A DNA stretch of 59,130 nt from positions 1 to 59,130 of IMG/VR virus record IMGVR_UViG_3300024581_000422. One strand, given 5' to 3'. Each line of letters opens with the position of its first letter. Position 1 is the first letter of the stretch. The stretch is from a virus. This document shows positions 1 through 59,130 of this stretch, piece by piece. The notes beneath the pieces are model-generated. The model made no database searches. It was not told where the DNA came from and saw only the letters and a list, made by a program, of their open reading frames with translations. The position numbers and the translations under genes were made by a program.

Positions 1-99
1 TTAATTGATAATCAATAAGTTAAGTAAAATAAAGTCAGCATAAAGTCAACACTAACTCAACACTATTATATATAAAGTCTACACTATTGGTAAAAAAAA
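1..99. repeat. Terminal exact direct repeat, left copy (identical to 59032..59130)
   Basis: Base-by-base comparison: ttaattgataatcaataagttaag...ctattggtaaaaaaaa occurs at both window ends. Confidence 0.95.
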
Positions 100-6745: not shown

Positions 6746-6835
6746 GGATACGTCAAACGAATGTCGTATATTAGTTTAAAATTAAATTAACTTGGCGAGT
6801 CTCTTCAAAGAGACTTGCTACAAAAATTAAATACA
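6746..6835 (+). promoter_or_regulatory. Promoter-hairpin cassette, copy 3
   Basis: ggatacgtcaaacgaatgtcgtatattagtttaaaattaaattaac, then a 10-bp stem gcgagtctct/agagacttgc (palindrome 6799..6814), then caaaaattaaatacaATG. Confidence 0.5.
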
Positions 6836-18434: not shown

Positions 18435-18450
18435 TCTCTTTGAAGAGACT
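18433..18450. terminator. 18-bp perfect palindrome agtctctttgaagagact between the two convergent arms (candidate bidirectional terminator/boundary)
   Basis: Overlaps the + strand stop (18432..18434) and the - strand stop (18450..18452). No flanking T-tracts. Confidence 0.5.
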
Positions 18451-34128: not shown

Positions 34129-34362
34129 TTATTCTTCAATAGTTGTCCACTCAGGACCGCTTACAATAACCAACATCTCTTCTTTTGTATAAGGCGTTAG
34201 ACCTTGCGGGGCTATACTCTCCTTAAACATCATTATACCCTTGGTGTCATCCAAAGACATCCGTATGTATATGTGTTGGCTACCAAGGCTTTCAATCATA
34301 AGATTCTTATATCCATCGATGTCATCCTTTAGTACAATATAATATCTCAAATCATCTATCAT
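34129..34362 (-). CDS. Hypothetical protein (77 aa)
   Basis: ORF track. ATGA-type overlap with the 1761-aa gene. Confidence 0.55.
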   Translation of the reverse strand: MIDDLRYYIVLKDDIDGYKNLMIESLGSQHIYIRMSLDDTKGIMMFKESIAPQGLTPYTKEEMLVIVSGPEWTTIEE

Positions 34363-43941: not shown

Positions 43942-45042
43942 TTATTTTTTACTCTTAATTGTTAAGCCTTTACTGCTTGGTGCAGATATAGACCTAATTT
44001 GCAATCCATCCTTACGACTTGATACCTGAGGTGTAACACGCTCTGTCATGTCAATGTTTTTCATTTTGCGTGTAACATTCTCAGTTGCATCAGCTTTGCC
44101 TTGCTCATAAAAGAACGAAGCAAATTTGTTTGGATTCATTGCTACAGCTAACGCTCTGTGATAACCTTCAGCATCGCTAAGCATCCCTGTGTCCGCATCA
44201 ATATACTTCTTAACGAAGCCTTGATAGTCCATGTGCTGCTCTTTGATTCTCTCAGCTTCACCCGGCTTAAAAGTAAAAGTGTTGTCTCCAATCTTGAAAT
44301 CAAAACCTTTGAAATCATTAAAGACTTCGTCTGTCTTTTGGACAAACCAATCTCTTTTTCTTTTAATTTCCTCTTGAGCTGTATTAGCTTCTGCTAAATA
44401 TCGCTTATACTCTTCAAACTCTTGAAGCTCTTCATTGGGGATTCCAACCGTACTTGACTCAAGTGGCTGCTTGTACATCTCCTTTTGCTCTTCAAAAAAG
44501 CTTTTAGCCTTAGCGACAGCTTTTTTCTTTTTTAACTTAATTTTCTTTATATCCTTTTCTTCGTCTAAGTCTTCATCATATCTGTAGTCATCTAATATAA
44601 TGTCTACATCATCTGAATCAATAGCCTCACCTGAAGCAATAAGATACTCAGATAATAGTTCGTCTTCGTCCATAGAAGAGAAATCTCTGTTTAGTTTTAC
44701 GTAATCTTCAATCCCTCTACCTGTGGTCTTCTTATATTCAAAATAACCTTTTACATCTTCAGGCAACTCTTCATTAGTCTCTCTCTGTTCGAATAGTTGG
44801 TCTATAGATGAAATGTCTTTCTCATATCTGTTCTTAATAAATGAAAGAACGTCTTCTTCTTTTAATTCTGCGGGAACTTCAGTCTCAACATTTGTTTCAA
44901 CTTGTTCACCACTTTCCTCAGTAATATGCTCAGTAGTATCAGTGTCATTATTATTTTCTTCATGTGTTTTTAATAATTCACTTTCTATCTCCTGAACAGA
45001 CTTCTGCTCACCTCCACTAATTTCTCTTACTTTAAATTCCAT
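43942..45042 (-). CDS. Scaffolding protein (366 aa)
   Basis: Very acidic and helical (E/K/D-rich), located between portal and capsid. Confidence 0.55.
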   Translation of the reverse strand: MEFKVREISGGEQKSVQEIESELLKTHEENNNDTDTTEHITEESGEQVETNVETEVPAELKEEDVLSFIKNRYEKDISSIDQLFEQRETNEELPEDVKGYFEYKKTTGRGIEDYVKLNRDFSSMDEDELLSEYLIASGEAIDSDDVDIILDDYRYDEDLDEEKDIKKIKLKKKKAVAKAKSFFEEQKEMYKQPLESSTVGIPNEELQEFEEYKRYLAEANTAQEEIKRKRDWFVQKTDEVFNDFKGFDFKIGDNTFTFKPGEAERIKEQHMDYQGFVKKYIDADTGMLSDAEGYHRALAVAMNPNKFASFFYEQGKADATENVTRKMKNIDMTERVTPQVSSRKDGLQIRSISAPSSKGLTIKSKK

Positions 45043-47530: not shown

Positions 47531-49755
47531 CTAATTATTTGACTTATATTTCCGGTGTTAGTATACCTTGCAAAGGTAACCTTTATTTTTGATTCTTTTT
47601 TTTCAGGCTGATACATATGCTTTTGACACGCCATGATAGCTAATCCTGAACTGATTGATGCATCAAACTTAGTCCTGTTTGTAATATCAAACCGTGCCCA
47701 ATCCTCGAGAGTCTTGTTAAATGGCATAGATGACATATCCCCATCAGACTTCATACCAACATGATTCTCAATGTAGGACTCTATAGCTGCTGCGTGTGCC
47801 TGCTTTACAGCCTCACTTGAGTTAGGTATACCTCCCAACTCTCTTTCTGTCTTAGACAGCTTCGTAAATGTCTTGTCGGGTCTGTTCATACAGTATCCCC
47901 TGTATCCCCTATTCTTAAAATGGTATAGTAGCCTTGGCTTGTTGTTCTCTATAAGTATTGGCATACTGTAAAACACACACGCCATCAACACATCTTCAAA
48001 AAATATCTCAGCAGTCTGAGGTCTTGCTATGTACTCCAAGAAGAACTCATTAGATGGAGCCTCTTCCATGTTAAACTTTGTTAGCCCATGCAGTGCGCCA
48101 TTGGAGCCTACGCCACCTACAGTCCCACTAATGTCATATGAGTCGCATCCAAATGCTCCTATGTGCTCATTGCCCGGATACATAATCCCATTCTTCTTTA
48201 CGGAATTGTTCTGTAAGCTTTTATTCGGAACCCATGTAATTAGAAACCTCCCCCTATTGTCAGGATTAAATACTACAGTGGTGTCCTTTATTCCATTCTT
48301 CCAACTAAATGAGCCACGTGTAACATACTGCTCTGTTATCATGGCATCATTGTAGTCTATCTGTTGGTATATCTTTGTTAAATTAAATAGCGACTGCTTG
48401 CTCTCATCTCTAAATGCATGAGACTCAGTCCTTGGAAACTGTCTATAATATTCGTTTAGTGCATCAGGGTCATTCTTTAGTGACTCAACTTCATTGTCCC
48501 AATAGTCTAATGCACCTTGTGTTATCCACTCCCCATCAATGCCTCTAATCTTTTCTCCATCATTATGTATTACAGGCATACCATGCCTGTCAATAAATCC
48601 CTCCATGTTCCACTCCATAGGTATAAATAGGCTATATAGTCCACTCTTTGTCTGACCGTTTGCATTCCTCTTCGTTATATCTGAATCATAGTATAACTTT
48701 TTAAAGTTGTCTCCTCCCTTATCTAATGCATTAGATGTAGAGCCCATCATACACTTGCCAATAATCTTGCTACCTAATCTTAGACACGTCTTAGTCACTC
48801 GCCAATTGTTTAGGATGTTATTCGGCTTTACCCACTTACCACTCTCATCGTGCACTAACAACAATAACTTCTCACCATCATAGCTGTTATCATCTGTGTT
48901 CTTCCAATCTATTGTGGTATCCAACCCTTCAATCACATCATCTTCCGAGTCAAACATATTCTTCTTGGTAATCTTAGATGCAGGTACACGATACGCCAAC
49001 TCAGTCTTAGGCTTGTCCATACCGTCCATGATAGGCTTGAAAAAGAATGGCAGCCTGCTGTTTATCGGCACAACCTTGTCCGTAAACATCTTCTTGGCAT
49101 CCGACCCTGTCTTTGACAGTATTCCAACTCGTGCATCTTTTGCAAGTGTTGCAGTATGGACACACTCAGACGATGACATAAACGAGAATCCTGACCGTCT
49201 TATCTTCAAGTACACCATACCAAAACTTCTCTTGTCAGCCTTACACGCCTCCCAAAAAATATATAGCAATCTGTTCGCCTCCCTATAGTCCGGGTATCCT
49301 ACGTCAATAGATGTCCACTGCAGATACATATAATGTGAACCCGTGATGTATGTTGGCTTGCCATTATTCATGAACCAAAAGCCATAGTCCCTATTATCAA
49401 ACTCAGACTCAATATAGTCTACCCAACGAGACTTAAATTCTGTAGGCATCTCATTCCATTGGAATATAGACTGTATTTTTGAAAGTTCTTTTGGCAACTC
49501 TTTACGCTCCCAATACTGCTCGTCTTTACTCTTGTGTCGTTGATAACATTCTTTTGGAGCCTTGGGTAGTGCTATCTTAAGTCCTGATATTTCAATGACT
49601 TCTCCTATCTCTCCTGTCTTTGATATGACTACAACATCATACTTTTCATTGTACCCATATAGCCAAGACTTATTGCGATTCTTATTCACATATACGCTAT
49701 TGGGGATGTGGTCGTGTACTACCCTATATATACTATTTTGACCTTCTTTCTGCAA
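47527..49755 (-). CDS. Terminase large subunit (742 aa)
   Basis: Walker-A-like KIRRSGFSF, Walker B LLLVHDESG, C-terminal nuclease-like acidic residues (GCDSYD). Position before the portal. Confidence 0.8.
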   Translation of the reverse strand: MQKEGQNSIYRVVHDHIPNSVYVNKNRNKSWLYGYNEKYDVVVISKTGEIGEVIEISGLKIALPKAPKECYQRHKSKDEQYWERKELPKELSKIQSIFQWNEMPTEFKSRWVDYIESEFDNRDYGFWFMNNGKPTYITGSHYMYLQWTSIDVGYPDYREANRLLYIFWEACKADKRSFGMVYLKIRRSGFSFMSSSECVHTATLAKDARVGILSKTGSDAKKMFTDKVVPINSRLPFFFKPIMDGMDKPKTELAYRVPASKITKKNMFDSEDDVIEGLDTTIDWKNTDDNSYDGEKLLLLVHDESGKWVKPNNILNNWRVTKTCLRLGSKIIGKCMMGSTSNALDKGGDNFKKLYYDSDITKRNANGQTKSGLYSLFIPMEWNMEGFIDRHGMPVIHNDGEKIRGIDGEWITQGALDYWDNEVESLKNDPDALNEYYRQFPRTESHAFRDESKQSLFNLTKIYQQIDYNDAMITEQYVTRGSFSWKNGIKDTTVVFNPDNRGRFLITWVPNKSLQNNSVKKNGIMYPGNEHIGAFGCDSYDISGTVGGVGSNGALHGLTKFNMEEAPSNEFFLEYIARPQTAEIFFEDVLMACVFYSMPILIENNKPRLLYHFKNRGYRGYCMNRPDKTFTKLSKTERELGGIPNSSEAVKQAHAAAIESYIENHVGMKSDGDMSSMPFNKTLEDWARFDITNRTKFDASISSGLAIMACQKHMYQPEKKESKIKVTFARYTNTGNISQIIR

Positions 49756-50014
49756 AACCTTGTCTTGTGTCTACCTTACTTGGACCCTTATCTAATGACT
49801 CGATAGCCTCCCTTTCAGATTCTATCCTGTTTAATATCTCAAAGGCATCAAAGATTGCAAGCTTCTTTGTGGCAGCAGCATTCTTTAGCCTGTCTGCCGA
49901 CAGCTCATCTTCAGGGTCGTGTTTGATAATGTCCTCTTTTGCAACCTTTATCAGTTGCTCTACAGCCCTGTGACCCGCATCAATTATCTTTAGTTTAATA
50001 TCCTTTGAGTTCAT
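49733..50014 (-). CDS. Hypothetical helical protein (93 aa), possible small terminase subunit by position only
   Basis: Immediately upstream of and overlapping the large terminase. Confidence 0.5.
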   Translation of the reverse strand: MNSKDIKLKIIDAGHRAVEQLIKVAKEDIIKHDPEDELSADRLKNAAATKKLAIFDAFEILNRIESEREAIESLDKGPSKVDTRQGFAERRSK

Positions 50015-50574
50015 ATCTTCAATGTTATTGAATGGTCATACATCCTCCACAGTATCTCTCCATCTACCATAAACTCATATTCCTGTGATGGCTTGTAACA
50101 TATCATGTCTCCTACCTTTAACCCTTCAGCTTTTAGGCTATCATTGATTATAGCAATCGTACCCATCAGAGGCTCATTTGTTATTGGCTTAAAGATATAA
50201 CTATCTTTTACAGGCGTAGGTTTGATAAAACAGTATCTGTCATATCCATGCCACACCCCATCTTTCTTATACGCAAAGAATTGGTCATAGTCTATAAAGA
50301 ATATATTTTCTTTAAAGAAACTCTTCCCACTCTTGCGTCTGCCCTTCATATCATTGTAGAACTTAAACACATTGTGGTGTACCAACAAGATGTCTCCTTT
50401 CTCTATTGGACCACTATAGTCTAATGGTGTCTCTATTACCACAGCCTCTCTATTAGATGCAGACACATCTTCTTCAGATGTGCTGACAATAAAGTCCATG
50501 CCTGCTATTGTCTTTGTGTTATTATATCTCTTATTATTTACAGGCTCTACTATAAACTGATATATAGATTTCAT
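50011..50574 (-). CDS. Hypothetical protein (187 aa) with two GroES-like beta-barrel-looking halves
   Basis: AVVIETPL...IEKGDILLVHHNVF and GTIAIINDSLKAEGLKVGDMICYKPSQEYEFMVDGEILWRM resemble the G.V...G....vkvGD.V.y pattern of Cpn10. Confidence 0.55.
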   Translation of the reverse strand: MKSIYQFIVEPVNNKRYNNTKTIAGMDFIVSTSEEDVSASNREAVVIETPLDYSGPIEKGDILLVHHNVFKFYNDMKGRRKSGKSFFKENIFFIDYDQFFAYKKDGVWHGYDRYCFIKPTPVKDSYIFKPITNEPLMGTIAIINDSLKAEGLKVGDMICYKPSQEYEFMVDGEILWRMYDHSITLKI

Positions 50575-51066: not shown

Positions 51067-51489
51067 TTATTCTTTATTATTCCGCTTTTTGCGTCTATCA
51101 CGCCCAAATGTAAACGTGTCCATCATTTTCTCACCCGTTCTTCCTATAACATATCCACCTATCCCTAACTGTAATAAATTCCAAAACTCATTCTCTAACG
51201 GTGGTATAGTAAACCCAAACAGTGGGGCTAAGAACTTAACGTATATAACAATGAATCCAAAGGCTAACATAAGAATAGGTCTCCAACTTCTCTGAAGGAA
51301 GTTACCCTTAGCCTCTTCAACAATGATGTCTGTCTGCATCTTCTGCAGCTCCAACTCTTTTTGTATGAATATCTGCTTCAGTGCAATCTCTGCCTGCATC
51401 TTTTCTTCCTTGGATGTGATAAGCCCATCAAGACCTCCAAGCACATCCTTTAACATTGTGCCACTAAACCACTCTACTACCTTATTCAT
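51067..51489 (-). CDS. Putative holin (3-TM type)
   Basis: Start set to MNKVVEWF (ATG inside tATGAATAA, overlapping the amidase stop). N-terminal coiled region followed by WRPILMLAFGFIVIYVKFLAPLFGF and further hydrophobic segments. Adjacent to the endolysin. Confidence 0.5.
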   Translation of the reverse strand: MNKVVEWFSGTMLKDVLGGLDGLITSKEEKMQAEIALKQIFIQKELELQKMQTDIIVEEAKGNFLQRSWRPILMLAFGFIVIYVKFLAPLFGFTIPPLENEFWNLLQLGIGGYVIGRTGEKMMDTFTFGRDRRKKRNNKE

Positions 51490-51889
51490 ATTCTTTTTTT
51501 GCGTCAAAACTCGGACACGCCTTTGTAGAAAAGTCTCTGTGTCCATATACTATAGCATCAGGATACATAGACTTTAACACCGTGATAAGGTTTAGTAGGC
51601 TTAACTTCTGAGTATCTGTCCGGGTATCCTTTGGAGTTGTCCCATCAGACTCTACTCCACCAATGTAACATATCCCTATGCTGTCAGCATTGTGCCCTAC
51701 AGTATGTGCACCTGTGCGTTCAACCTGTCTTCCAATCTTAAGAGTGCCATCCAACTCTATAACATAATGGTATCCAATATCAGACCATCCACGCTCATTG
51801 ACGTGCCAATCACGGATAGTATCAGCTGTAATGTCCTGACCCTCTCGTGTTGCACTGCAGTGGACTATTATCTTCTTAATTGTCCTCAT
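51482..51889 (-). CDS. N-acetylmuramoyl-L-alanine amidase (Amidase_2/PGRP, T7-lysozyme-like) endolysin
   Basis: IIVHCSAT...WSDIGYHYVI..DG....GR.....GAH..GHN..SIGICYIGG. Confidence 0.9.
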   Translation of the reverse strand: MRTIKKIIVHCSATREGQDITADTIRDWHVNERGWSDIGYHYVIELDGTLKIGRQVERTGAHTVGHNADSIGICYIGGVESDGTTPKDTRTDTQKLSLLNLITVLKSMYPDAIVYGHRDFSTKACPSFDAKKEYE

Positions 51890-52034
51890 TATTATTATTC
51901 ATATAAATTTTCTGAAGTGTATATATTATTGTTGTAGATAGCAATAATACTTTTAATAACATTTCAATCTCTGTAAATGATATAGCCAATACTCCTGAAT
52001 TTATACAATATAGCTTTAAGTCTTCCAAGCTCAT
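51876..52034 (-). CDS. Small TM protein (52 aa), possible lysis accessory
   Basis: Hand-translated: MSLEDLKLYCINSGVLAISFTEIEMLLKVLLLSTTIIYTLQKIYMNNNNEDN*. Overlaps the amidase start. Fills an otherwise empty 160-nt gap. Confidence 0.35.
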   Translation of the reverse strand: MSLEDLKLYCINSGVLAISFTEIEMLLKVLLLSTTIIYTLQKIYMNNNNEDN

Positions 52035-52048
52035 CTCTTTAGCAATTT

Positions 52049-52516
52049 TTAATACAGTGCGTACATATCTGTAGCAGTTGTATCTGTAGCGTTAATAACA
52101 GACATTAGCACAGGAATCATTGTTGCGGGAGGCACACTTGGCATGAATATATCATCTCCTCCTGCAGTACGACCACTAATGTCTCCACCTGTACCCGACC
52201 ATATTGCAGCACCACGTCCTACCCCACCAATTACATAAAGCTCTCCAACCGCAGTAAATATATCTGCTGATAGCGTTATTTGCTTTGGTCCATTTACTCC
52301 TACAACCGTAGCACCTGCACCTGTCGACAGGTTGTATACAGTTGAACCTATTGGCACAACTTCAACAAAACTTACAGTAGTGTTTGAATCAAACAGTTTA
52401 TTTGCTCCAAGCGATGTTACTCCACTTGGTCCCGCTATTTGTGAGTCAGGAAGCCTTAGCCCATCTATGGGAATTATCGGAATCGCCTTTGTGGGTTGTA
52501 ATCTTTGATATGTCAT
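52049..52516 (-). CDS. Hypothetical structural-type protein (155 aa, Gly/Thr/Val-rich)
   Basis: ORF track. Confidence 0.6.
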   Translation of the reverse strand: MTYQRLQPTKAIPIIPIDGLRLPDSQIAGPSGVTSLGANKLFDSNTTVSFVEVVPIGSTVYNLSTGAGATVVGVNGPKQITLSADIFTAVGELYVIGGVGRGAAIWSGTGGDISGRTAGGDDIFMPSVPPATMIPVLMSVINATDTTATDMYALY

Positions 52517-52518
52517 AG

Positions 52519-52758
52519 CTATTTATTTTTTTTACTTAGTTTTATTGCTGTTGCAATACCTCCAATGATAGGGAATGTACCTGCTATATTTGCAACAACT
52601 TTTTTTGCTTTAGTTGGCTCTTTCTTTTTCTTTGGTCCACATATTCCATATGATTTACTCTTTGTGCGGCATTTGCCTCCACCCATTTTTCCTTTTTTCT
52701 TTTTTCCTCCGCCCGGTCCAAATGTTGATGGGGCTAATGGTTTACTTAAGTTTCTCAT
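52519..52758 (-). CDS. Tagged lysine-rich mini-protein A (79 aa): N-terminal MRNLSKPLAPSTF tag, poly-K/G core, C-terminal Gly-zipper hydrophobic tail
   Basis: ORF track. Motif shared with 53082..53279, 53290..53490 and 55654..55869. Confidence 0.65.
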   Translation of the reverse strand: MRNLSKPLAPSTFGPGGGKKKKGKMGGGKCRTKSKSYGICGPKKKKEPTKAKKVVANIAGTFPIIGGIATAIKLSKKNK

Positions 52759-52760
52759 AG

Positions 52761-52928
52761 CTATTGTTTATATGGTATAATTCTGTTTAATGTATCTCTC
52801 CTCTTGTTGCATCCGCAGTCCTTGCCTGTCTTCTTTGATATGGTGTCTACCACAGACTTAATGCCTGTCAGCCTTGTTACCTTGGCTACAGTGTCACCGA
52901 ATCCCTTTGACTTCTCACTTAGCTGCAT
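52761..52928 (-). CDS. Small conserved-looking protein (55 aa) with a CGC motif
   Basis: Hand-translated: MQLSEKSKGFGDTVAKVTRLTGIKSVVDTISKKTGKDCGCNKRRDTLNRIIPYKQ*. The stop lies 2 nt before the next ATG. Confidence 0.5.
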   Translation of the reverse strand: MQLSEKSKGFGDTVAKVTRLTGIKSVVDTISKKTGKDCGCNKRRDTLNRIIPYKQ

Positions 52929-53074
52929 CTCTTATTTTTACAGTCACACAATAATCTCTGTGGGCAGTCTTTAACCTTGAACATCAGCTTGCATACGCCA
53001 CCGTTCCACTTACACTTCAGCCTGTTACCCAAGCCCTGTAGCCATGTCCCTAATCGTATTAATAACTTTCCCAT
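52919..53074 (-). CDS. Small Cys-rich basic protein (51 aa)
   Basis: Hand-translated codon by codon: MGKLLIRLGTWLQGLGNRLKCKWNGGVCKLMFKVKDCPQRLLCDCKNKRCS*. Overlaps the next ATG. Confidence 0.45.
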   Translation of the reverse strand: MGKLLIRLGTWLQGLGNRLKCKWNGGVCKLMFKVKDCPQRLLCDCKNKRCS

Positions 53075-53081
53075 TGTTTCT

Positions 53082-53279
53082 TTATTTTCTAAATATTGAT
53101 GGAGCTAATGGTGTAGATAAATCTCTTCTTACTGTATTCTTTGCCGCAGAAGCTATTTTTTTGGCAGCCTGTGTAGCAATAGCAGCCTGTGTAGCAGAAG
53201 CCACTTTTTTGGCAGCCTTTGCCACTAATGTCGTTTTTTTGGCAGCTTTTTTCTTTTTCTTTTTTTCTTTATCTTCCAT
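53082..53279 (-). CDS. Tagged lysine/alanine-rich mini-protein B (65 aa); the tag RRDLSTPLAPSIF is at the C-terminus
   Basis: ORF track. AKK/AAKK histone-H1-like composition. Confidence 0.6.
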   Translation of the reverse strand: MEDKEKKKKKKAAKKTTLVAKAAKKVASATQAAIATQAAKKIASAAKNTVRRDLSTPLAPSIFRK

Positions 53280-53289
53280 AACTATTTAT

Positions 53290-53490
53290 TTATTTTCCTA
53301 ATGATACTCCACTTTTATTCTTCGCAGACTTACTCAAAATAATCAATCCAAGAGTTCCCGCACCTGCTATTCCACCTGCAATCTCTGTAAGCTTTTCTCT
53401 GCGTGCAGCCTTCTTCTCCTCCTTAGTCTTCTTCTTCTTAGGCTCTTTATCAAACTTGCTCTCAGATAATGGTCTACTTAAATCTCTCAT
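53290..53490 (-). CDS. Tagged lysine-rich mini-protein C (66 aa): MRDLSRPLSESKF tag plus C-terminal Gly-zipper tail
   Basis: ORF track. Same architecture as protein A. Confidence 0.65.
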   Translation of the reverse strand: MRDLSRPLSESKFDKEPKKKKTKEEKKAARREKLTEIAGGIAGAGTLGLIILSKSAKNKSGVSLGK

Positions 53491-53495
53491 AACTT

Positions 53496-53744
53496 TTATC
53501 TACTACACCCAAAGTTCTTAGCAAAGTTTGCCATCTTTACTACACTTGGCTTATATTTATTTTTACTTCTCATTACCGATGAAGCAGCAGCACACACAGA
53601 CTTCCCCGGCATATTCTTCTTTGCCCAATCTGTAAACTTGCCTTCATTAGACTTTTTAATTTTTATGTCCTGCTTTCTCTTCACTGCAACAAAGATACTA
53701 ATATTTTCCTTTTCTATTTTTAGGACTTGACTTGGTCGAGCCAC
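53496..53744 (-). CDS. Small basic protein (up to 82 aa; start uncertain)
   Basis: ORF track. Its 5' end overlaps 53698..53988, so the real start is probably an internal or non-ATG codon near 53690. Confidence 0.45.
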   Translation of the reverse strand: MARPSQVLKIEKENISIFVAVKRKQDIKIKKSNEGKFTDWAKKNMPGKSVCAAASSVMRSKNKYKPSVVKMANFAKNFGCSR

Positions 53745-53988
53745 CCGGACCTGCCCACAGGTTCTTACACGCCCAATACCGTGCAGTCAGCTTGTCTTTT
53801 GCTGTACTACACTTGTGTCGTGCCCGGAAAGACTTGCGTGCAGCAGCAGAATAGTTGTGACCGTAGCCCTCAGCACCGAAGTGTATCAACTTCTCTTTGC
53901 CATTAGCACACGCCTTTACCATCTTCTTCTTACCTGCCCTATCAGATTTAGTAACCCGATTGCACTTCATCTTGCTCTTAGTCGCCAT
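53698..53988 (-). CDS. Small basic protein (96 aa)
   Basis: ORF track. KLIHFGAEGYGHNYS..ARKSFRARHKC...ARYWACKNLW looks like a conserved fold rather than low complexity. GC-richer than the surrounding sequence. Confidence 0.6.
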   Translation of the reverse strand: MATKSKMKCNRVTKSDRAGKKKMVKACANGKEKLIHFGAEGYGHNYSAAARKSFRARHKCSTAKDKLTARYWACKNLWAGPGGSTKSSPKNRKGKY

Positions 53989-53991
53989 ATC

Positions 53992-54243
53992 CTATCTCTT
54001 TGTGTAACCCTTCGTTACCTTTGCCTTCTTGGTGTTAGGGACAAACTGCTTTGTCCGTCCCAATGCCTTCTTCTTCCTTGCAGTCTTCGCCCTCTCAGAC
54101 TTTGACATACTGCTCGCCTTCTTCAGCGGTAGACACCTGTCAGGGTTCTTCTTGTTCTTGCTCGTTCCGCACTCACCCTTTATAGAGCCATCCGTTCCGA
54201 TGCGAACCCACTTCTCGTCTCTCCACTTCTTTAGCTCACCCAT
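53992..54243 (-). CDS. Small basic protein (83 aa)
   Basis: ORF track. KWRDEKWVRIGTDGSIKGECG.....PDRCLP motif followed by a K/R-rich tail. Confidence 0.6.
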   Translation of the reverse strand: MGELKKWRDEKWVRIGTDGSIKGECGTSKNKKNPDRCLPLKKASSMSKSERAKTARKKKALGRTKQFVPNTKKAKVTKGYTKR

Positions 54244-54258
54244 AGACCTTTATTATAT

Positions 54259-54849
54259 CTATGCAGACTCTAATGTTATAACTACATTTGCTTCTGCTGT
54301 TGAAGAAGTACTAAATGTACCGGAGCTTAATGCAGTAACAGCCACAACACTCCCTGCAGGCAAATCAATATTCAACGCTGATACATCTTCTACAAATCCG
54401 GGAAATGGAGTGTCGTCAGTATCTATTGTTGTCGTTATAAAATAGTCAGTCCATAATGCCGCATTAGTCATGTCGCCTCCTACAGTTGCTGTTGAAATTT
54501 TAAATGTTATCGTCTTATTAGCTCCTGCAGCTGTAGTAATACTAAGACCGGAACACCACTGCCATCCTAATGATGTAACCTTGCAGTCTTCAGTCACTAT
54601 AACAAATCCTATCTGACCTAATGGAGCTTTAATAGTCCCAAAGTCAGCAGTATAACCACCAAGAAAACTTATCGTCCCACTGCTTCCAAAGTTTTGCATA
54701 GTCCCCGCATATGAAAGATATGAAGAGGAATTGAAATCATCAGGGAAGGTATAAGGCTCTGTTAGGCTGTTAATATAAGCTGACCTTTTTTCTGTAAGGT
54801 CTACCTCTTGTGATATACCTATAAATCTTGTTCCGTTTGGTATTGCCAT
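54259..54849 (-). CDS. Putative fibre/receptor-binding beta-sandwich protein (196 aa)
   Basis: Start moved to MAIPNGTRF (ATG 54849) to remove a 120-nt overlap with the upstream gene. Confidence 0.55.
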   Translation of the reverse strand: MAIPNGTRFIGISQEVDLTEKRSAYINSLTEPYTFPDDFNSSSYLSYAGTMQNFGSSGTISFLGGYTADFGTIKAPLGQIGFVIVTEDCKVTSLGWQWCSGLSITTAAGANKTITFKISTATVGGDMTNAALWTDYFITTTIDTDDTPFPGFVEDVSALNIDLPAGSVVAVTALSSGTFSTSSTAEANVVITLESA

Positions 54850-54869
54850 GTCTGTTTGTTTATTTATTT

Positions 54870-55490
54870 TTATAATCCTATCTTGTATATGCTGAGTGTT
54901 GCTGATGGAACATTGCTCCATCCACCTAACAATATGTGTGAATACAGTCCGCCTTGGTCTACACCTGAACTGTCTCGCATTATCTCCCATGTGAGCACAT
55001 CACCTGCAGTTGCATTGATTGGTATCGTAAGGTCATACGGTATAATAGTGTCCGTGTCCTTCAACTCAACAATCTTTGTTTCGCCTGACTGCACACCATT
55101 GATAAGTGCCCTGAATGCAATCACAGCACCACCACCTGATGAACCCTGACGCTCAAAGCTTGCATACCCATTGATTAGGTATATGCCGGACTCGTTGAAT
55201 GTTACATTGCCCAACCCATCTACCATCACCGGGTCAGCAATTGTCCCTTGTGATGTACCAAACTGTACCTGCAGTGGTGTGTCTAAACCCGAAGGTACTT
55301 GATTGTCTGTACCCGATGCGTTTAGCACGTTGGTCACAGCCAAGTTTGTAGCTATACCGCCTGATATATACGCACTGATGTCAGAGATTAGAAAGTTCTT
55401 CGTCTCGTTATTGCTGTCAGCATCTGTGCCTATCACCTTGTCGTTTGGTGAGATGTTGTTGTCTGTTGTGTATGTTGAAATCTTTGCCAT
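54870..55490 (-). CDS. Putative tail fibre with a C1q/TNF-like C-terminal jelly-roll (206 aa)
   Basis: N-terminal MAKISTYTTDN..DKVIGTD....TKNFLISDISAYI. C-terminal GIYLINGYASF...AVIAFRALINGVQ...ATAGDVLTWEI...ATLSIYKIG. Confidence 0.5.
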   Translation of the reverse strand: MAKISTYTTDNNISPNDKVIGTDADSNNETKNFLISDISAYISGGIATNLAVTNVLNASGTDNQVPSGLDTPLQVQFGTSQGTIADPVMVDGLGNVTFNESGIYLINGYASFERQGSSGGGAVIAFRALINGVQSGETKIVELKDTDTIIPYDLTIPINATAGDVLTWEIMRDSSGVDQGGLYSHILLGGWSNVPSATLSIYKIGL

Positions 55491-55654
55491 TACTTTTTGT
55501 TTTTACCTTTAGCATAGTTTGGGTCTTTGCAGTACTTACTCGCAGCCATGTTTGCATATGCAGATGGATACCTGTCGAATGTTCTCTTCGCCCATGCTAT
55601 GCCCGCAGGACATATCTTGTTCTTTTTTTTATTTGCACTCCTCTTTGTTGGCAC
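55490..55654 (-). CDS. Small basic protein (54 aa, GTG start overlapping the upstream stop)
   Basis: Hand-translated codon by codon: (M)PTKRSANKKKNKICPAGIAWAKRTFDRYPSAYANMAASKYCKDPNYAKGKNKK*. TAGTG and TAATG overlaps couple it to both neighbours. Confidence 0.45.
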   Translation of the reverse strand: MPTKRSANKKKNKICPAGIAWAKRTFDRYPSAYANMAASKYCKDPNYAKGKNKK

Positions 55655-55869
55655 TACTTTTTACTTTTGTATCTATCTGTATACTTAGTTGACTCTGACA
55701 ACTCGTAATCATCCGACTTTTCTAATCGCTTGTCAAAGTCTTTTCTATACTGCTTCAACATCTTGACGTGCTTCTTGAAAGCCTGCTTCTGCTTCTTCTT
55801 TACACTTTTTGGTTTCTTGCTACCATTGTCAAATATTGACTCAGATAGTGGAGTTCGTAGGTCTCTCAT
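55654..55869 (-). CDS. Tagged lysine-rich mini-protein D (71 aa): MRDLRTPLSESIF tag
   Basis: ORF track. First gene behind a perfect TATCTTTG box. Confidence 0.65.
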   Translation of the reverse strand: MRDLRTPLSESIFDNGSKKPKSVKKKQKQAFKKHVKMLKQYRKDFDKRLEKSDDYELSESTKYTDRYKSKK

Positions 55870-55881
55870 CGTAATTTTTAT

Positions 55882-55899
55882 TATCTTTATGCAAAGATA
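55882..55899. promoter_or_regulatory. Palindrome TATCTTTATGCAAAGATA carrying two back-to-back (divergent) -7 boxes
   Basis: The - strand reads TATCTTTG, 22 nt before ATG 55869. The + strand reads TATCTTTA, 24 nt before ATG 55914. Confidence 0.5.
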
Positions 55900-55913: not shown

Positions 55914-56363
55914 ATGCAGAAATACACCCCAACACATGACTACCTAAAATATTGGAAGGTTGTCAGACAATACATAAAGTCACGATACAAGCTTACGCAG
56001 GCAGACCTTGACATACTGCTGTTCTTGCGTACAGAAGACTACTTCTCTAAAGATAAATTTGAAGAGTTTGACAGGCTCCTATCTTGGGATGACAGGAGAT
56101 TTAATAGGCTACTAAAAGATGGATGGATAGAAGTCTTCCGTAAACGTAAAGGTAAACGTAAAGGGCTATACACATTATCGTTTCATGCCAAGCACGTGGT
56201 CGCATCTATATACAGGAAGCTGAATGGTGAAGAGATTCCAATGACAGCAGAACACAATCCTATGTTTTTAAAGAATGTGTCATACTCAGACAAACGCTAT
56301 CGTGAGGCTATCATCGCAATGAATGAGTCTATTCGACAACAACGACATCACGCTCCTGAATGA
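55914..56363 (+). CDS. Putative winged-helix (MarR-like) DNA-binding regulator (149 aa)
   Basis: LTQADLDILLFL...RFNRLLKDGWIEVFRKRKGKRKGLYTLS pattern. It is the only + strand gene inside the - strand arm. Confidence 0.45.
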   Translation: MQKYTPTHDYLKYWKVVRQYIKSRYKLTQADLDILLFLRTEDYFSKDKFEEFDRLLSWDDRRFNRLLKDGWIEVFRKRKGKRKGLYTLSFHAKHVVASIYRKLNGEEIPMTAEHNPMFLKNVSYSDKRYREAIIAMNESIRQQRHHAPE

Positions 56364-56586
56364 TTGTGCACATGGTATTATCTATGGCGAGCGTATATGA
56401 GTTACGCACGTCATAGTATATGATGTCGTTTTCTTTCAGGTGTGGCACATCTGTGCCCGGCATTATCACCCGACCTTTCTGATACCTAAATGACTTCGCA
56501 TCCTCATCCGATAGTAGGATGCCACTCTCGGTTGTTATCTTCTCTTCTATTTTTTCTATTACGATATTTTTTCCTATTGCCTTCAT
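56329..56586 (-). CDS. groES: Co-chaperonin GroES (Cpn10) homologue (85 aa)
   Basis: KAIGKNIVIEKIEE..TTESGILLS......QKGRVIMPG......LKENDIIYY...........IIQERDVVVV follows the Cpn10 pattern along its full length. Confidence 0.75.
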   Translation of the reverse strand: MKAIGKNIVIEKIEEKITTESGILLSDEDAKSFRYQKGRVIMPGTDVPHLKENDIIYYDVRNSYTLAIDNTMCTIIQERDVVVVE

Positions 56587-57239
56587 TATACTTTTTTTGT
56601 GTTATACATATATCTGTCAGTGTCTTCTGTCACCCACTTCTCATACCCCTCAGCATTGAATGTCTGTGTGCACACCTTATAGTCAGGTCGCTCAGGGAAA
56701 TCTTTTGTAGTAAAAGATGGCTCAATCCATCTCACCCTATTGTTTGGCTGTAGTGCAATGTTACCGTTTTGCAACAGGATTATATGGTGCGACTTATGTT
56801 CGTGTGGTGTCTCACTAAGTGTAAGGTCAGCATTCTCGTTTGTGTCACCCGCCCACTGTAGTGTTGCAAAGTATTCGCCATCATACCACATCTTGTCTTT
56901 CATATACACAGATGCAGTCACGCTACCCAAGTAGTTTAGTTGCACTACCGAGAAGTTCTTACTAAAAGAGTTCCATAGGCACAGGTGGTCAAATGCCATG
57001 GCAGGTGCAGTCGTTGGGTCTATCTCTCTGTCGAATACCACAAATGCAGAGCACGGTAGCTTGTCTCTCATCACACCATTCTCAAGTAGCACTTGGAATA
57101 GTGGCACTTGTCCGGGCAAGCACTTTACAGATACCATCCGCCCCCTGTCAAACTCTCCATGGTTAGACTCCATGTCGTATAGGTACTCTCGTCGTACCCA
57201 TACATCTAAAGGAGGAAAACTTGATTCAATGTATGCCAT
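56586..57239 (-). CDS. Hypothetical protein (217 aa) embedded between groEL and groES
   Basis: ORF track. ATG/stop abutting groES. Confidence 0.65.
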   Translation of the reverse strand: MAYIESSFPPLDVWVRREYLYDMESNHGEFDRGRMVSVKCLPGQVPLFQVLLENGVMRDKLPCSAFVVFDREIDPTTAPAMAFDHLCLWNSFSKNFSVVQLNYLGSVTASVYMKDKMWYDGEYFATLQWAGDTNENADLTLSETPHEHKSHHIILLQNGNIALQPNNRVRWIEPSFTTKDFPERPDYKVCTQTFNAEGYEKWVTEDTDRYMYNTKKV

Positions 57240-57249
57240 GTCTTATAAT

Positions 57250-58860
57250 CTAATTAGATGTGTCGTAGCTTCGTGCCATTGTCACAATAGCATTTGTAGA
57301 TAGTATGGTCACTGCAACAGAGACCGCATTCTGTAGTGCCTGACGTGTCACCTTCACCGGGTCTATCACCCCAAGTGACATCAGGTATCCATACCGCTCA
57401 TTCTTCACATCGTATCCCCACGTTGCCCCCTTGCAGTCCTTGTACACCTCAGCAGCATCGAGACCCGCATTGGATAGTATCTGATACAGCGGAGCCTTCA
57501 GTGCCTGAGACAGGATAGCATATGCAGTCTTCTTTGCTACATTCTTCTCTTTGCGTTCCTTGATGGCATAGCTCTTGTGAAGGTTGTATAACGTCAGCCC
57601 ACCACCCGGCAAGATGCCTTCTTCAAGCGCAGAGCGAACCGCACACACCGCATCGTCTACACGGTCATATAACTCTTTCTGCTCGAGGTCTGTCTGCCCA
57701 CCTACGTATACCACACCGATACCTCCCGACAGGGATGCGATACGCTGATTGATAAAGTCCTTGTCTTCTTTTTTCTTTGCATTGCTGTGTGCCTCCTGCA
57801 ACTGCTTCACTCGCTCTTTCACCTCGTCTGATGTCTCCTCGTCGTCCTTCACGATGACAGTTGAGTCCCTGCCAACTATCACCTTGGAACAGTGACCCAA
57901 ATCATCGAATGTGATATGGCTTAGGTCGTCCCCCGTCTTCTCGCTAAAGTATGTAGCCCCAACACTGATAGCTATGTCCTGCATCAGCTCGTGCTGCCTA
58001 TACCCAAAGTCAGGCGGGTTTATCGTACATACCCTAAGCCCATTTTTTATTACGTTGGCTGCAAGCGTGTTCACCACATTCGTTGAACATGGCGCAATCA
58101 TAAGGAGCTTCTTGCCCTCTTGGATGATTGGCTTCAATACGTTTTCTATCTGTAGTATATTGCTTATCTCTGTGTCACACACCAACACATATGTGTCCTC
58201 GAGTACACACTCATCTCTCTTTTGGTCATTGATGAATAATGTAGATGCATACCCACGCTTTATCTTTATCCCCTGTGTCGTCTCGTAGTATGTATCCGAT
58301 GTCTTGCTTTTCTCTACCGTCACCACACCATCACGCCCTATGCTCTCATACACATCTGCTATAATGCCGCCTATGTGACCATCATTATTCGCTGAGATAA
58401 TCGCAACATCTCGCAGCTTTCGACTGTCTAAGGTCTTGCCTTTTAGCTTTAACATATTCGATATACTCTTGGTCTCGTCTACCATGTGTCGTAACACCTC
58501 TGTTCGATTGACCATATCGCCAATCATGTCGGTGCCTGCATTGACCAATGCTTCTGCCAATACAATCGCAGTCGTCGTGCCATCACCCGCAGATGACGCA
58601 GTCATGTCCGCAGCCTCCTTCATCATCCGAACCGCAAGGTTCTCGACCGGGTCAAGTAATGAGATTGACTTCGCTACAGTCACGCCATCCTTCGTTACCG
58701 TAATGCCATGTAGATGTTCAGGCGACTCTATCAGTACCGTATTGCCTCGTGGTCCAAGTGTGGACTTGACAGCATTGGAAATCTTGTTGATGCCATTGAT
58801 TAGTTTACTTCGTCCACCATCTGAGAAGTGGAGTTCTTTAGGAGTGAATCCCTGTTGCAT
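57250..58860 (-). CDS. groEL: Chaperonin GroEL (Cpn60) homologue (536 aa)
   Basis: KELHFSDGGRSKLINGINKISNAVKSTLGPRGNTVLIE, ITVTKDGVTVAKSI, AGDGTTTAIVLAEAL, PGGG. Start set to ATG 58860 (MQQGFTPK). No C-terminal GGM repeat. Confidence 0.95.
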   Translation of the reverse strand: MQQGFTPKELHFSDGGRSKLINGINKISNAVKSTLGPRGNTVLIESPEHLHGITVTKDGVTVAKSISLLDPVENLAVRMMKEAADMTASSAGDGTTTAIVLAEALVNAGTDMIGDMVNRTEVLRHMVDETKSISNMLKLKGKTLDSRKLRDVAIISANNDGHIGGIIADVYESIGRDGVVTVEKSKTSDTYYETTQGIKIKRGYASTLFINDQKRDECVLEDTYVLVCDTEISNILQIENVLKPIIQEGKKLLMIAPCSTNVVNTLAANVIKNGLRVCTINPPDFGYRQHELMQDIAISVGATYFSEKTGDDLSHITFDDLGHCSKVIVGRDSTVIVKDDEETSDEVKERVKQLQEAHSNAKKKEDKDFINQRIASLSGGIGVVYVGGQTDLEQKELYDRVDDAVCAVRSALEEGILPGGGLTLYNLHKSYAIKERKEKNVAKKTAYAILSQALKAPLYQILSNAGLDAAEVYKDCKGATWGYDVKNERYGYLMSLGVIDPVKVTRQALQNAVSVAVTILSTNAIVTMARSYDTSN

Positions 58861-58883
58861 ATGTATTAAATTTAATTGTACCA

Positions 58884-58891
58884 CAAAGGTA
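58884..58891 (-). promoter_or_regulatory. -7 box TACCTTTG (- strand), 24 nt before the groEL ATG
   Basis: Exact TAnnTTTG match, inside the inverted repeat tgtacc-acaaa-ggtaca (58885..58901). Confidence 0.45.
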
Positions 58892-59031: not shown

Positions 59032-59130
59032 TTAATTGATAATCAATAAGTTAAGTAAAATAAAGTCAGCATAAAGTCAACACTAACTCAACACTATTAT
59101 ATATAAAGTCTACACTATTGGTAAAAAAAA
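59032..59130. repeat. Terminal exact direct repeat, right copy (identical to 1..99)
   Basis: See 1..99. Confidence 0.95.

Follow-up and report, generated by a model that had tools for sequence, protein, structure and literature searches.

We describe an uncultured Bacteroidota-type phage that encodes four minute Lys-rich proteins (A, B, C, and D) with a common 13-residue tag, found in a window of 59,130 nucleotides that makes up the whole stretch of DNA analysed (IMG/VR record IMGVR_UViG_3300024581_000422). By analogy with known cargo systems, we tentatively interpret the tag as a protease-independent cargo-loading peptide, usable at either terminus, that may put polycationic internal proteins into the virion, an assignment in which we place somewhat less than even confidence. 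The tag is most likely previously undescribed; Pfam, PHROGs, NCBIfam, and PDB sequences hold no family for it, and the tag profile matched no PDB chain sequence at E up to 10.

All four open reading frames of the preliminary description are present at their positions on the minus strand. Gene A (52519-52758, 79 aa) starts with the tag (MRNLSKPLAPSTF, nt 52720-52758) and continues with a Gly/Lys-rich body, in which there are two Cys residues, and a hydrophobic segment of the Gly-zipper type (VVANIAGTFPIIGGIATAIK, nt 52540-52599); orthologues are found in L014, L010, and P0020, while the gene is missing from the corresponding slot of the relative L002. Gene B (53082-53279, 65 aa) has the tag RRDLSTPLAPSIF (nt 53091-53129) at its very C-terminal end, where only RK separates it from the stop codon, and the protein ends with RRDLSTPLAPSIFRK. 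Its body is Ala/Lys-rich and histone-H1-like, and the orthologues P0081-P0083 (~80 aa) keep the tag at the extreme C-terminus, ending in GRDLSTPLAPSIFRK or GRDLSTPLAPSTFGK. In gene C (53290-53490, 66 aa) the N-terminal tag (MRDLSRPLSESKF, nt 53452-53490) is followed by a linker rich in K and E and then by a hydrophobic helix of the Gly-zipper type (IAGGIAGAGTLGLIIL, nt 53335-53382), and orthologues form 16 clusters (P0001-P0016), 15 of which score above 100 bits. Gene D (55654-55869, 71 aa), which opens the minus-strand island 44 bp from a divergent regulator-like gene, again starts with the tag (MRDLRTPLSESIF, nt 55831-55869) and continues with a Lys-rich body; an identical protein is on record (P0028, JGI), and the orthologues P0017, P0018, P0022, and P0023 as well as loci L007, L009, and L017 show an invariant tag and a conserved body. 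Judged by the conserved sequence of these orthologues, all four are real genes.

The preliminary description of a short portable tag on unrelated Lys-rich bodies proved correct. Lys makes up 21-25% of each of the four proteins, compared with a mean of 7.5% and a maximum of 13% in the window ORFs of at least 100 aa, and the net charges range from +10 to +21 with pI values of 10.0-10.8. Stripped of the tag, A to D gave no significant pairwise BLASTP match (best E-value 0.12). The Gly-zipper tail proposed to be common to A and C was likewise recovered as a C-terminal Gly-rich hydrophobic segment with mean Kyte-Doolittle values of 1.6 and 1.8, respectively, over 17 residues. In the AlphaFold2 model of the gene C product (mean pLDDT 65.6), residues 1-22, which hold the tag, are predicted as coil and residues 23-59 as a single helix that includes the hydrophobic segment.

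We considered whether the likeness of the tags is a matter of chance among low-complexity basic peptides, or whether the ORFs are not genes at all, as might be suspected of short, Lys-rich reading frames without a match to curated families. In six-frame translation of the window the pattern R[DN]L..PL..S.F has exactly four matches, all on the minus strand and within 3.3 kb, against an expected mean of 0.000 and a maximum of 0 over 200 residue shuffles, while the bare core [DN]L..PL is not significant by itself (5 observed versus 3.8 expected). An exhaustive search of 1.84 billion proteins with the tag profile yielded 35 significant matches, of which 33 are small proteins of 31-208 aa that are highly basic and have the tag at residues 1-5. 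Moreover, the 41 distinct DNA versions of the core use two to five synonymous codons at the positions where Leu, Pro, Asp, or Ala is invariant, and within the window the conserved Ser is encoded by AGC in gene C and by TCA in the other three copies; since the invariant residues are kept despite synonymous codon changes, conservation of the tag acts at the protein level. Together with the orthologues of all four genes, the pattern counts, codon usage, and profile matches refute the chance or non-gene explanation, to which we assign a negligible probability, and the motif is clearly conserved in homologous phages, the point on which the preliminary description had let its proposal depend.

The tag core can be written R-[DN]-L-x-x-P-L-[AS]-x-[ST]-x-[FYW], and the profile search gave the wider consensus (M/MAYK/MK)RDL[SG]xPLAP[ST][FY]GD[PD]. 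The aromatic residue mostly has G or D after it and then a flexible stretch rich in G, P, or K, and the tag boundary shows no invariant residue, whether of a cleavage type or otherwise. C-terminal tags are conserved in the B family and also occur in L081 and L017, and N-terminal tags can be preceded by prefixes of 1-12 residues. This use of either terminus with a variable prefix agrees better with a docking peptide than with a signal peptide, a leader, or a start-codon feature.

The 33 basic proteins from the profile search represent clusters at 50% identity, and their sequences after the tag are unrelated. The fetched loci added 36 further distinct tagged ORFs (21-259 aa, pI 9.5-11.4, K+R 15-36%), and the basic bodies that bear the tag are unrelated and number at least 30, with EF-hand-like, H1-like, TM, and plain poly-Lys types among them. 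All tagged genes with a visible neighbourhood lie in one small-basic-gene island of a single uncultured podovirus group, at one to four copies per genome and often in tandem (four in L105, three in L136, and two each in L102, L133, L012, and L090). Only 12 of the 80 loci retrieved via the 96-aa neighbour gene carry the tag, and close relatives differ, with L090 tagged and L095, L098, and L063 untagged. The tagged genes are accessory and often form tandem arrays. A strict DNA pattern of the tag had no copy in 596 Gb of prokaryote genomes; a loose pattern gave 27 matches there, none of which precedes a Lys-rich ORF and all of which we judge to be chance. Because prokaryotes thus offer no true copy, compared with 12 true tags among 17 matches in IMG/VR, the tag is not host-derived. 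No cultured relative with the tag was found, as tblastn with the consensus returned nothing from GenBank phages and the fetched stretches of the Elemovirus and Panino genomes (41 kb) and of MW202828 (27 kb) contained none.

The gene order in the tagged phage group is GroEL/ES, regulator, island, lysis cassette, and terminase. In loci with enough flank, all tagged genes have the GroES/regulator genes on one side and the lysis cassette, terminase, and portal on the other, and tail-fibre-like genes are interspersed among them. Within the window, the untagged rest of the island (52761-55654, minus strand) comprises a 54-aa gene (55490-55654), two tail-fibre-like genes (54870-55490 and 54259-54849), and genes of 83 aa (53992-54243), 96 aa (53698-53988), ~62 aa (53496-53684), 51 aa (52919-53074), and 55 aa (52761-52928), and the island families recur in the same order across ~100 related loci. 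The product of the 96-aa gene hits positions 532-606 of the PHROG 220 profile ("minor head protein and DNA pilot") with E = 4.5e-15. On the plus strand, the divergent 149-aa gene (55914-56363), a "repressor protein" by the MW202828 annotation, marks the left-hand edge of the island, a boundary conserved in ~65 loci. The Bacteroidota sigma-A promoter has the -7 consensus TAnnTTTG, which is matched, as a pattern only, by TATCTTTG at 55892-55899 on the minus strand, 22 nt upstream of the gene D ATG. Downstream, and transcribed in the direction of the island, the segment 51067-52516 encodes on the minus strand a 155-aa conserved protein (52049-52516), a 52-aa hydrophobic protein with a probable single TM (51876-52034), an Amidase_2 endolysin (51482-51889), and a 3TM holin (51067-51546). 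Beyond the lysis genes follow the terminase (47527-49755), the portal (45095-47530), a candidate scaffold (43942-45042), and the major capsid protein (42435-43910). The phage, a podovirus, has a P22-like portal, a crAss-type muzzle domain, and giant proteins (3459 and 1761 aa); in Elemovirus, the ORF at the corresponding position is annotated as a structural protein.

Several of these features argue for a cargo-loading peptide, namely one tag on many unrelated basic bodies, the late/structural position of the tagged genes near the PHROG 220-like protein, their accessory and hyperplastic distribution as in T-even internal proteins, the tolerance of the tag at either terminus, the predicted coil tag and single-helix body of gene C, the virion type, and the absence of a host origin. 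The preliminary description had offered a virion-targeting or processing signal as one alternative; virion targeting is the part best supported by analogy and genomic context, whereas processing found no support, with no prohead-protease domain detected in the structural module, no cleavage-type residue invariant at the tag boundary, and a C-terminal version that is conserved.

By function, the closest analogues of the tag are the T4 capsid-targeting sequence (CTS) and the encapsulin loading peptides. The T4 CTS reads MKTYQEFIAE, to which the tag has no sequence similarity. It is N-terminal on phage internal proteins and is cut by gp21 (PMC3012670). In the T4 CTS proteins (IPI, IPII, IPIII, and Alt) a terminal peptide of ~10-13 residues is the sole common feature, as in the tagged proteins, and T-even internal proteins resemble the tagged set in being diverse, fast-evolving, accessory, basic, and Lys-rich, with clustered, hyperplastic loci in a tailed phage (PMC3012670). 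The earlier comparison with T4 internal proteins holds for the architecture, but not for cleavage or sequence, as neither a gp21-type prohead protease nor an L/I-x-E cleavage site is seen for the tag; besides, the tag also occurs at the C-terminus, the tagged phage is not a T4-like myovirus, and packaging is proposed for the tagged proteins. Encapsulin loading peptides are likewise short, unstructured, and terminal (at either end) on functionally unrelated cargo, and if a phage shell were used in the same way, the expected partner would be the inner face of the HK97-fold shell. Their consensus is LxxGSLK-like and differs from that of the tag, and here we deal with a DNA-packaging phage with terminase and portal instead of a nanocompartment operon, and with polycationic disordered cargo instead of enzymes. 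Adenovirus pVII and pre-Mu are Arg/Lys-rich DNA-condensing proteins in which a short N-terminal peptide contacts the capsid interior during assembly. They resemble what we propose for the tagged proteins in these traits, but belong to a eukaryotic virus of another capsid lineage, have propeptides removed by the adenoviral protease, and share no homology. Cargo-rich virions are documented in Bacteroidota podoviruses, where the cargo protein gp45 has a predicted TM helix (PMC10172136). The cargo and ejection proteins of PhicrAss001 (gp45/gp46), P22, and T7 are stored with the DNA, some with a predicted TM helix (PMC10172136), and PhicrAss001 shares with the tagged phage the podovirus type, the host phylum, and the crAss-type muzzle domain; these known cargo proteins, however, are large (60-280 kDa) and conserved, with no common loading tag described.

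Some observations point away from loading. The hydrophobic tails could take A and C to the cell membrane ahead of packaging, and gene D, with the host-type -7 box upstream, may be expressed early. We therefore weighed whether the tag is a short linear motif docking on a host or non-structural phage protein, the tagged proteins being intracellular effectors or adaptors whose polycationic or membrane-anchored bodies tether or sequester this hub on nucleic acid (DNA or RNA) or membrane and might thereby disturb, for instance, the nucleoid, division, or replication of the host. Hub-binding peptides are usually short, disordered, Pro-containing terminal motifs, which the tag resembles with its predicted coil and its occurrence at either terminus; it may also bear a loose likeness to the N-terminal ParA-stimulating peptide of ParB (KRGLGRGLxALL). 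The -7 box would suit such a role, patchy distribution with tandem diversification is equally typical of host-interaction genes, and the tail anchors of A and C are easier to reconcile with cellular proteins than with cargo. We nevertheless consider this unlikely, though not strongly so, as the tagged genes lie in the late/structural and lysis block and not among the plus-strand replication/early genes, no candidate host motif was recognised and no PDB chain matched at the cutoff given above, the lack of a true copy in the prokaryote genomes searched leaves no obvious host-sequence mimic, and it is hard to explain why one hub should need so many body types.

An improbable alternative is that the tag serves as a handle recognised or cleaved by an enzyme, either a protease of phage or host or a GAT-II/GGACT-type peptide-modification system, which would mature or decorate the Lys-rich peptides. 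The capsid and scaffold proteins of staphylococcal phage 80alpha are cut by the host protease Prp, and N-terminal tags on unrelated phage proteins can, as in T4 and 80alpha, be protease signals; the G or D and flexible stretch after the aromatic position would fit as well. Of the amidoligase/GGCT pair invoked in the preliminary description, we found a GAT-II + GGACT fusion protein (6815-7903), while no amidoligase domain was detected in the scanned ORFs. A GGCT gene is also present in the tagless relative MW202828, so that there is no co-occurrence, and no domain of a protease, recognition-element protein (RRE), ATP-grasp, amidoligase, or transporter was detected beside the tagged genes or in the structural module. 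With no modifying enzyme adjoining the tagged genes in any locus, the proposed modification handle finds no support; the boundary without an invariant residue also speaks against it, and with only two residues after the B-family tag, "leader" removal would be pointless. RiPP leaders do resemble the tag as a conserved N-terminal segment before a variable remainder, with several paralogues per locus, but the tagged bodies are long polycations instead of short Cys/Ser/Thr cores, a C-terminal version exists, and the suggested parallel fails on context, with no RRE, modifying enzyme, or transporter nearby. Even less do we favour a role late in infection in which the tagged proteins are cationic peptides active in lysis or on the envelope, modulate the holin, or disrupt the outer membrane, and in which the tag serves the lysis machinery by regulation or by binding a partner. 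Cationic lysis peptides such as phiKT gp28 exist in phages, A and C each have both a hydrophobic helix and a polycationic segment, and they lie ~0.5 kb and ~1.3 kb, respectively, upstream of the 52-aa hydrophobic/amidase/3TM holin cassette in the same orientation. Yet a hydrophobic segment is missing from B, D, and most of the 33 representatives, tagged plain polycations reach 259 aa, the tagged genes occupy variable island slots, often the first and distant from the lysis genes, and untagged relatives carry the same lysis cassette.

Returning to the cargo-loading peptide, a gene-content association test over 101 loci returned coverage artefacts only and no binding partner. The island also contains other Lys-rich families without the tag, and if these enter the virion as well, packaging does not generally require the tag. 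Many close relatives with near-identical structural modules are untagged, so the tagged proteins cannot be essential for DNA condensation. We infer the partner, packaging, DNA association, and ejection from the genes and propose that the tag is a short, unstructured, Pro-containing linear docking peptide, usable at either terminus, which would direct a varying repertoire of small, polycationic, and largely disordered proteins to an unchanging virion-assembly partner, possibly the capsid interior, scaffold, or portal. The tagged proteins would then be packaged alongside the DNA, with their Lys-rich bodies lying against the DNA phosphates, and let out on infection, when the Gly-zipper helix variants A and C may insert into the host membrane upon ejection.

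All four minus-strand ORFs singled out in the preliminary description are present, namely A (52519-52758), B (53082-53279), C (53290-53490) and D (55654-55869), and they have in common a short peptide tag of the pattern R[DN]L..PL..S.F, N-terminal in A, C and D and C-terminal in B. When all 59,130 bases of the window are translated in six frames, this pattern occurs four times, always on the minus strand and within 3.3 kb, compared with no occurrence in 200 residue shuffles of the window translation; the common tag is thus upheld, and chance similarity as its origin is refuted. The bare core [DN]L..PL alone is not significant (5 observed, 3.8 expected). Lysine makes up 21-25% of the four proteins, against a mean of 7.5% for the longer ORFs of the window, and their net charges lie between +10 and +21. 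After removal of the tag no pair of bodies aligns significantly, in agreement with the earlier view that the bodies are unrelated beyond their high Lys content. The Gly-zipper tail attributed to A and C was also recovered, as a Gly-rich hydrophobic C-terminal segment common to both, these being the sole hydrophobic segments among the four proteins. An AlphaFold2 model of C predicts coil for residues 1-22, comprising tag and linker, followed by a single helix at residues 23-59.

Genes A-D are real genes, with orthologues of each in other assemblies. Those of C fall into 16 clusters in which tag, linker and helix are all conserved, while D is matched by the protein cluster representatives P0017, P0018, P0022 and P0023 and in three fetched loci of related phages (L007, L009 and L017). 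Gene A, an insertion relative to locus L002, has orthologues in L014, L010 and P0020. The bodies of the B orthologues P0081-P0083 have diverged, and the tag is kept at the end, as ...GRDLSTPLAPSIFRK or ...GRDLSTPLAPSTFGK directly before the stop codon, which rules out B as a decayed or fused pseudogene. Two more independent C-terminal tags were found, one on a 97-aa basic protein in L081 and the other in L017, where a second tag has been added at the C-terminus of an N-tagged protein.

The back-translated DNA pattern of the tag, scanned against IMG/VR, matched 17 sites, 12 of which are the starts of small basic ORFs beginning MRDLxxPL[AS]xSxF. A scan of related phages with a tag profile, suggested in the preliminary description and here built from the IMG/VR matches and run over about 100 fetched loci, showed the motif to be conserved and yielded 36 distinct tagged proteins in these loci, of 21-259 aa, with pI values of 9.5-11.4 and K+R contents of 15-36%. 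Exhaustive hmmsearch of 1.84 billion representative proteins with an 18-column profile (E <= 0.001) returned 35 matches, of which 33 are basic proteins of 31-208 aa with the tag beginning between residues 1 and 5, and two are repeat proteins that match through repetition. Positions R2, L4, P7 and L8 are invariant in the alignment, and the consensus reads RDLxxPL[AS]x[ST]x[FY][GD], with no invariant Glu at the boundary. The commonest form is RDL[SG]xPLAP[ST][FY]GD[PD], preceded by M, MK, MAYK, MKYS or similar and followed by poly-Lys; PLAPTFGD and PLSESxFD subtypes can be told apart, and the window copies represent the PL[AS]xSxF[DG] variant. The tag is polar and Pro-rich, without a hydrophobic stretch. 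Its core exists in 41 distinct DNA versions, with several synonymous codons at each of the invariant Leu, Pro, Asp and Ala positions, indicating that selection acts on the protein rather than on the DNA and ruling out a DNA- or RNA-level repeat as its origin.

Behind the tag, the bodies range from plain polycations and Ala/Lys H1-like repeats (B) to Gly-zipper helices (A, C and one protein in L090), Cys-containing segments and proteins with an EF-hand-like DxNKDGxV loop directly behind the tag (L073, L090 and P0079). This loop has the canonical form (DRNKDGVVDAKE, DYNKDGEVTMQE) in L073 (around 6821), L090 (around 4134), P0079 and P0033, which suggests a Ca-binding variant of the tagged body. 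The tagged proteins P0054 and P0061 (L135 and L136), with otherwise unrelated bodies, have the extreme C-terminal motif ...RNPKPGPYQY in common, which may be a second portable peptide. Pfam, PHROGs v4 and NCBIfam gave nothing above noise for A-D and eleven further tagged proteins, of which nine P-numbered representatives and one 259-aa locus ORF were checked against PHROGs and two representatives against NCBIfam. The tag profile matched no PDB chain at E values up to 10, and our literature searches found no description of the tag. The tagged family is undescribed in every library queried.

Every tagged gene with a visible neighbourhood lies in the same island of small basic genes and in the same phage group, flanked by the GroES/regulator genes on one side and by the lysis and terminase genes on the other. 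This includes the diverse tagged proteins P0031 and P0073, which were found in this GroEL-type island in all recovered neighbourhoods; on the P0061 contigs, too short to reach GroEL, the same small-gene families are present. Copy number varies from one to four per genome, often in tandem, with four copies in L105, three in L136 and two in several loci. Only 12 of the 80 loci retrieved via the 96-aa gene of the island carry the tag, and close relatives differ, L090 being tagged and L095, L098 and L063 not. Since tag-positive and tag-negative loci are interleaved at every similarity level, the tag does not mark a single sub-clade. No tag was seen in the stretches fetched from the metagenomic podovirus MW202828, Elemovirus elemoF and Maribacter phage Panino, nor did a tblastn search with the consensus match any of 50,697 GenBank phage records. 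The strict DNA pattern was missing from 596 Gb of prokaryote genomes, in which the loose pattern matched 27 times, never ahead of a Lys-rich ORF; we judged all 27 to be chance matches.

An exact 99-bp direct repeat at the ends of the window (1-99 and 59032-59130) indicates that the genome, of about 59.0 kb, is complete and either circularly closed or terminally redundant. Among the replication-type genes on its plus strand are a primase whose N domain is BT4734-like, an SNF2 helicase, PDDEXK nucleases, a DnaA-C HTH protein and a GAT-II and GGACT fusion. The minus-strand array starts with a normal GroEL (57250-58884) and a normal GroES (56329-56586), continues through a lone divergent 149-aa regulator-like gene into the island, and past it encodes a 155-aa protein (52049-52516), a lysis cassette (52-aa hydrophobic protein, Amidase_2 endolysin and 3TM holin), TerL (47527-49755), a P22-like portal (45095-47530), a putative scaffold (43942-45042) and the major capsid protein (42435-43910), before ending with tail proteins, among them one whose C-terminal domain is a crAss muzzle, and two ORFs of 1761 and 3459 aa. 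The capsid protein is 66% identical to that of MW202828, 53% to that of Panino and 48-49% to those of Flavobacterium Elemovirus, and Cellulophaga podoviruses also match, at below 60%; all these nearest relatives point to a Bacteroidota host. TAnnTTTG boxes, as pattern matches only, lie upstream of D and of GroEL, and a scan for E. coli-type sigma-70 promoters and terminators gave nothing above shuffles.

Several genes outside the island deserve mention. The 279-aa tail-module protein at 32308-33147 (minus strand) carries the Crassvirus muzzle C-terminal domain (PF25729, E = 5e-20), a domain match that would tie the GroEL-encoding podovirus group structurally to crAss-like phages. Of the two giant minus-strand ORFs, the one at 18450-28829 (3459 aa) has no Pfam domain, and the Elemovirus ORF at the matching position is annotated as a structural protein with DUF3293; the other, at 34359-39644 (1761 aa), has a C-terminal Laminin_G_3 as its only Pfam domain. 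Just upstream of the terminase, a conserved 187-aa protein without a Pfam match is encoded at 50011-50574 (minus strand), and the Elemovirus and Panino ORFs in this slot, at twice the size of GroES, are annotated "co-chaperonin GroES". Between GroEL and GroES, some relatives (L102, L103 and L105) have an inserted gene for a 156-aa Mom-family protein (PF25680); in the window this slot is taken by a 217-aa ORF (56586-57239) that matches nothing in Pfam.

The island itself (52761-55654, minus strand), together with its counterparts in L090, L095, L063, L102, L105 and L133, comprises about ten small basic gene families that behave like cassettes shuffled between genomes, with starts or motifs such as ICPAGIAWAKRTFD..YPSAYAN, MGELKKWRDEKWVRIG, MPTVKYKC, MKKQGYNSRLDES, GFGDTVAKVT..CGC.KRRD and NEGKFTDWAKKNMPGKSVC. 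Most of these families lack annotation anywhere, and tail-fibre-like genes are interleaved with them; the neighbourhoods in about 100 loci consist solely of small basic, fibre-like and lysis genes. Part of the island is a 96-aa basic protein with four Cys (53698-53988, minus strand), which is 80-97% identical over the fetched loci and 76% identical in MW202828, and which occurs in at least 600 IMG/VR stretches as well as in pelagiphage, roseophage SIO1, Aeromonas phages and cyanophages. Its matches are confined to a segment (positions 532-606) of PHROG 220, annotated "minor head protein and DNA pilot", and a weak one to DUF5754. For the neighbouring ORF listed at 53496-53744 (minus strand; 82 aa from a GTG), the internal GTG at 53684 is the probable start and gives a 62-aa protein (MKRKQDIKIKKSNEGKF...) like its L090 and L063 homologues; a TATCTTTG box lies directly upstream of this GTG, at 53690-53697.

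The capsid-targeting sequence (CTS) of T4 internal proteins, to which the tag had been likened, has a consensus that ends in an L/I-x-E cleavage site and is the classic loading tag, on which T4-based protein-delivery and vaccine platforms are built. The likeness holds in so far as both are short conserved peptides, N-terminal in T4, shared within one phage lineage by basic accessory proteins that are not otherwise related, and it fails for the processing: the tag is unrelated in sequence and has no L/I-x-E site, and Pfam and PHROG scans of the ORFs between terminase and the giant ORF and around the island, which a divergent protease could escape, detected no peptidase domain of a gp21-type or other prohead protease. 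Encapsulin loading peptides, which set a precedent for use at either terminus, resemble the tag as short disordered terminal peptides on diverse cargo, whereas an encapsulin operon encodes a stand-alone HK97-fold shell without terminase, portal and tail, and the present genome has terminase, portal, tail and lysis genes. Given the unrelated sequence, the lack of a prohead protease and cleavage site in our scans and the different phage type with terminase and portal, we place the tag system in neither family, although it would work in the manner of T4 CTS and encapsulin loading peptides. The likeness to RiPP leaders did not stand, as Pfam and PHROG scans of all island neighbours revealed no RiPP modifying enzyme, RRE protein, leader peptidase or transporter, and no such machinery appeared in the ~100 loci. 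A Sec/Tat or lipoprotein signal is ruled out by the missing hydrophobic h-region and the C-terminal version of the tag. To the best of our knowledge, neither the beta-clamp motifs QLxLF/QLSLPL, the FtsZ C-terminal peptide and the SSB tail nor TonB/TolB boxes and the Bacteroidota D-[ST]-hydrophobic glycosylation site fit the invariant tag positions.

The tagged bodies are many, mutually unrelated and uniformly polycationic; the tag stands at either terminus and tolerates short N-terminal prefixes; and the tagged genes, accessory and tandemly diversifying, lie in a tailed phage among genes for late functions, structure and lysis. Taken together with the short, unstructured and Pro-containing nature of the motif and the strong protein-level selection on it, these properties exclude chance and a DNA repeat as well as readings of the tag as a signal peptide or as a translation-start feature, and they argue for a docking peptide with one constant partner. 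We tentatively favor, as the best-explaining reading and at somewhat short of even odds, a cargo-loading peptide for internal virion proteins: the tag would bind a virion component, and the tagged proteins would be packaged and later ejected. Precedents come from T4, where lysines of the internal proteins touch packaged DNA (PMC3012670), and from the Bacteroidota podovirus PhicrAss001, in which the cargo load is large and one cargo protein has a predicted TM helix (PMC10172136). The cargo-loading reading is weakened by four observations, namely that an association test of clustered ORFs against tag presence over 101 loci gave no candidate partner gene (its top clusters are terminase-proximal genes, whose detection was set by how much contig had been fetched), that many close relatives are tagless, that A and C bear hydrophobic tails, and that a host-type promoter box, as a pattern match, lies upstream of D.

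A motif for a host hub or another non-structural partner seems to us rather unlikely. The proposal that the tag is a handle for processing or modification, which had invoked an amidoligase/GGCT pair acting on the lysines, is improbable. Of this pair, the GGCT part survives as a fusion at 6815-7903 (plus strand), whose N-terminal region is a class-II glutamine amidotransferase (NTN-hydrolase-like) and which further comprises a GGACT/AIG2-like gamma-glutamyl cyclotransferase domain and a tail rich in Cys; none of the plus-strand ORFs scanned showed an amidoligase domain. Against such a handle stand the lack of any protease or modifying enzyme near the tagged genes in the Pfam and PHROG scans, a comparable "GGCT" gene in the tagless MW202828, the extreme C-terminal position that the tag can take and the missing invariant boundary residue. 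A role in lysis or at the envelope would suit the hydrophobic helices and fits only the minority of tagged proteins that have them; we regard it as quite improbable too. Extending the cargo-loading reading, we surmise, with slightly greater reserve, that an unrecognised, protease-independent peptide of about 13 residues, usable at either terminus, loads interchangeable arrays of polycationic disordered proteins into the DNA-filled capsid of abundant uncultured GroEL-encoding Bacteroidota podoviruses. The loaded proteins would form a phage "protamine/histone-H1" set, some of whose members may insert into membranes or bind Ca.

The tag finding is solid, and the family is large and easily searched. 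Well-documented loading tags for phage cargo are, to our knowledge, rare; the concept has classical precedent, and it is the function of this tag that we infer. If cargo loading is true, a T4-CTS-like system would have evolved independently a second time, and a ready-made tag would be at hand by which foreign proteins could be packaged in podovirus capsids. With its unrelated sequence, its use at either terminus and its apparent lack of cleavage, such a second tag would show that the "address label plus swappable cargo" arrangement is recurrent in tailed phages, would help to spot internal or ejected proteins in metagenomic phage genomes by sequence alone, and would be a minimal tool for engineering cargo into Bacteroidota phage capsids. 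Should its partner be a host hub instead, the tag would be a new phage-host interaction motif on more than 30 protein families. Under either reading, "hypothetical low-complexity ORFs" become a defined family that can be searched and tested.
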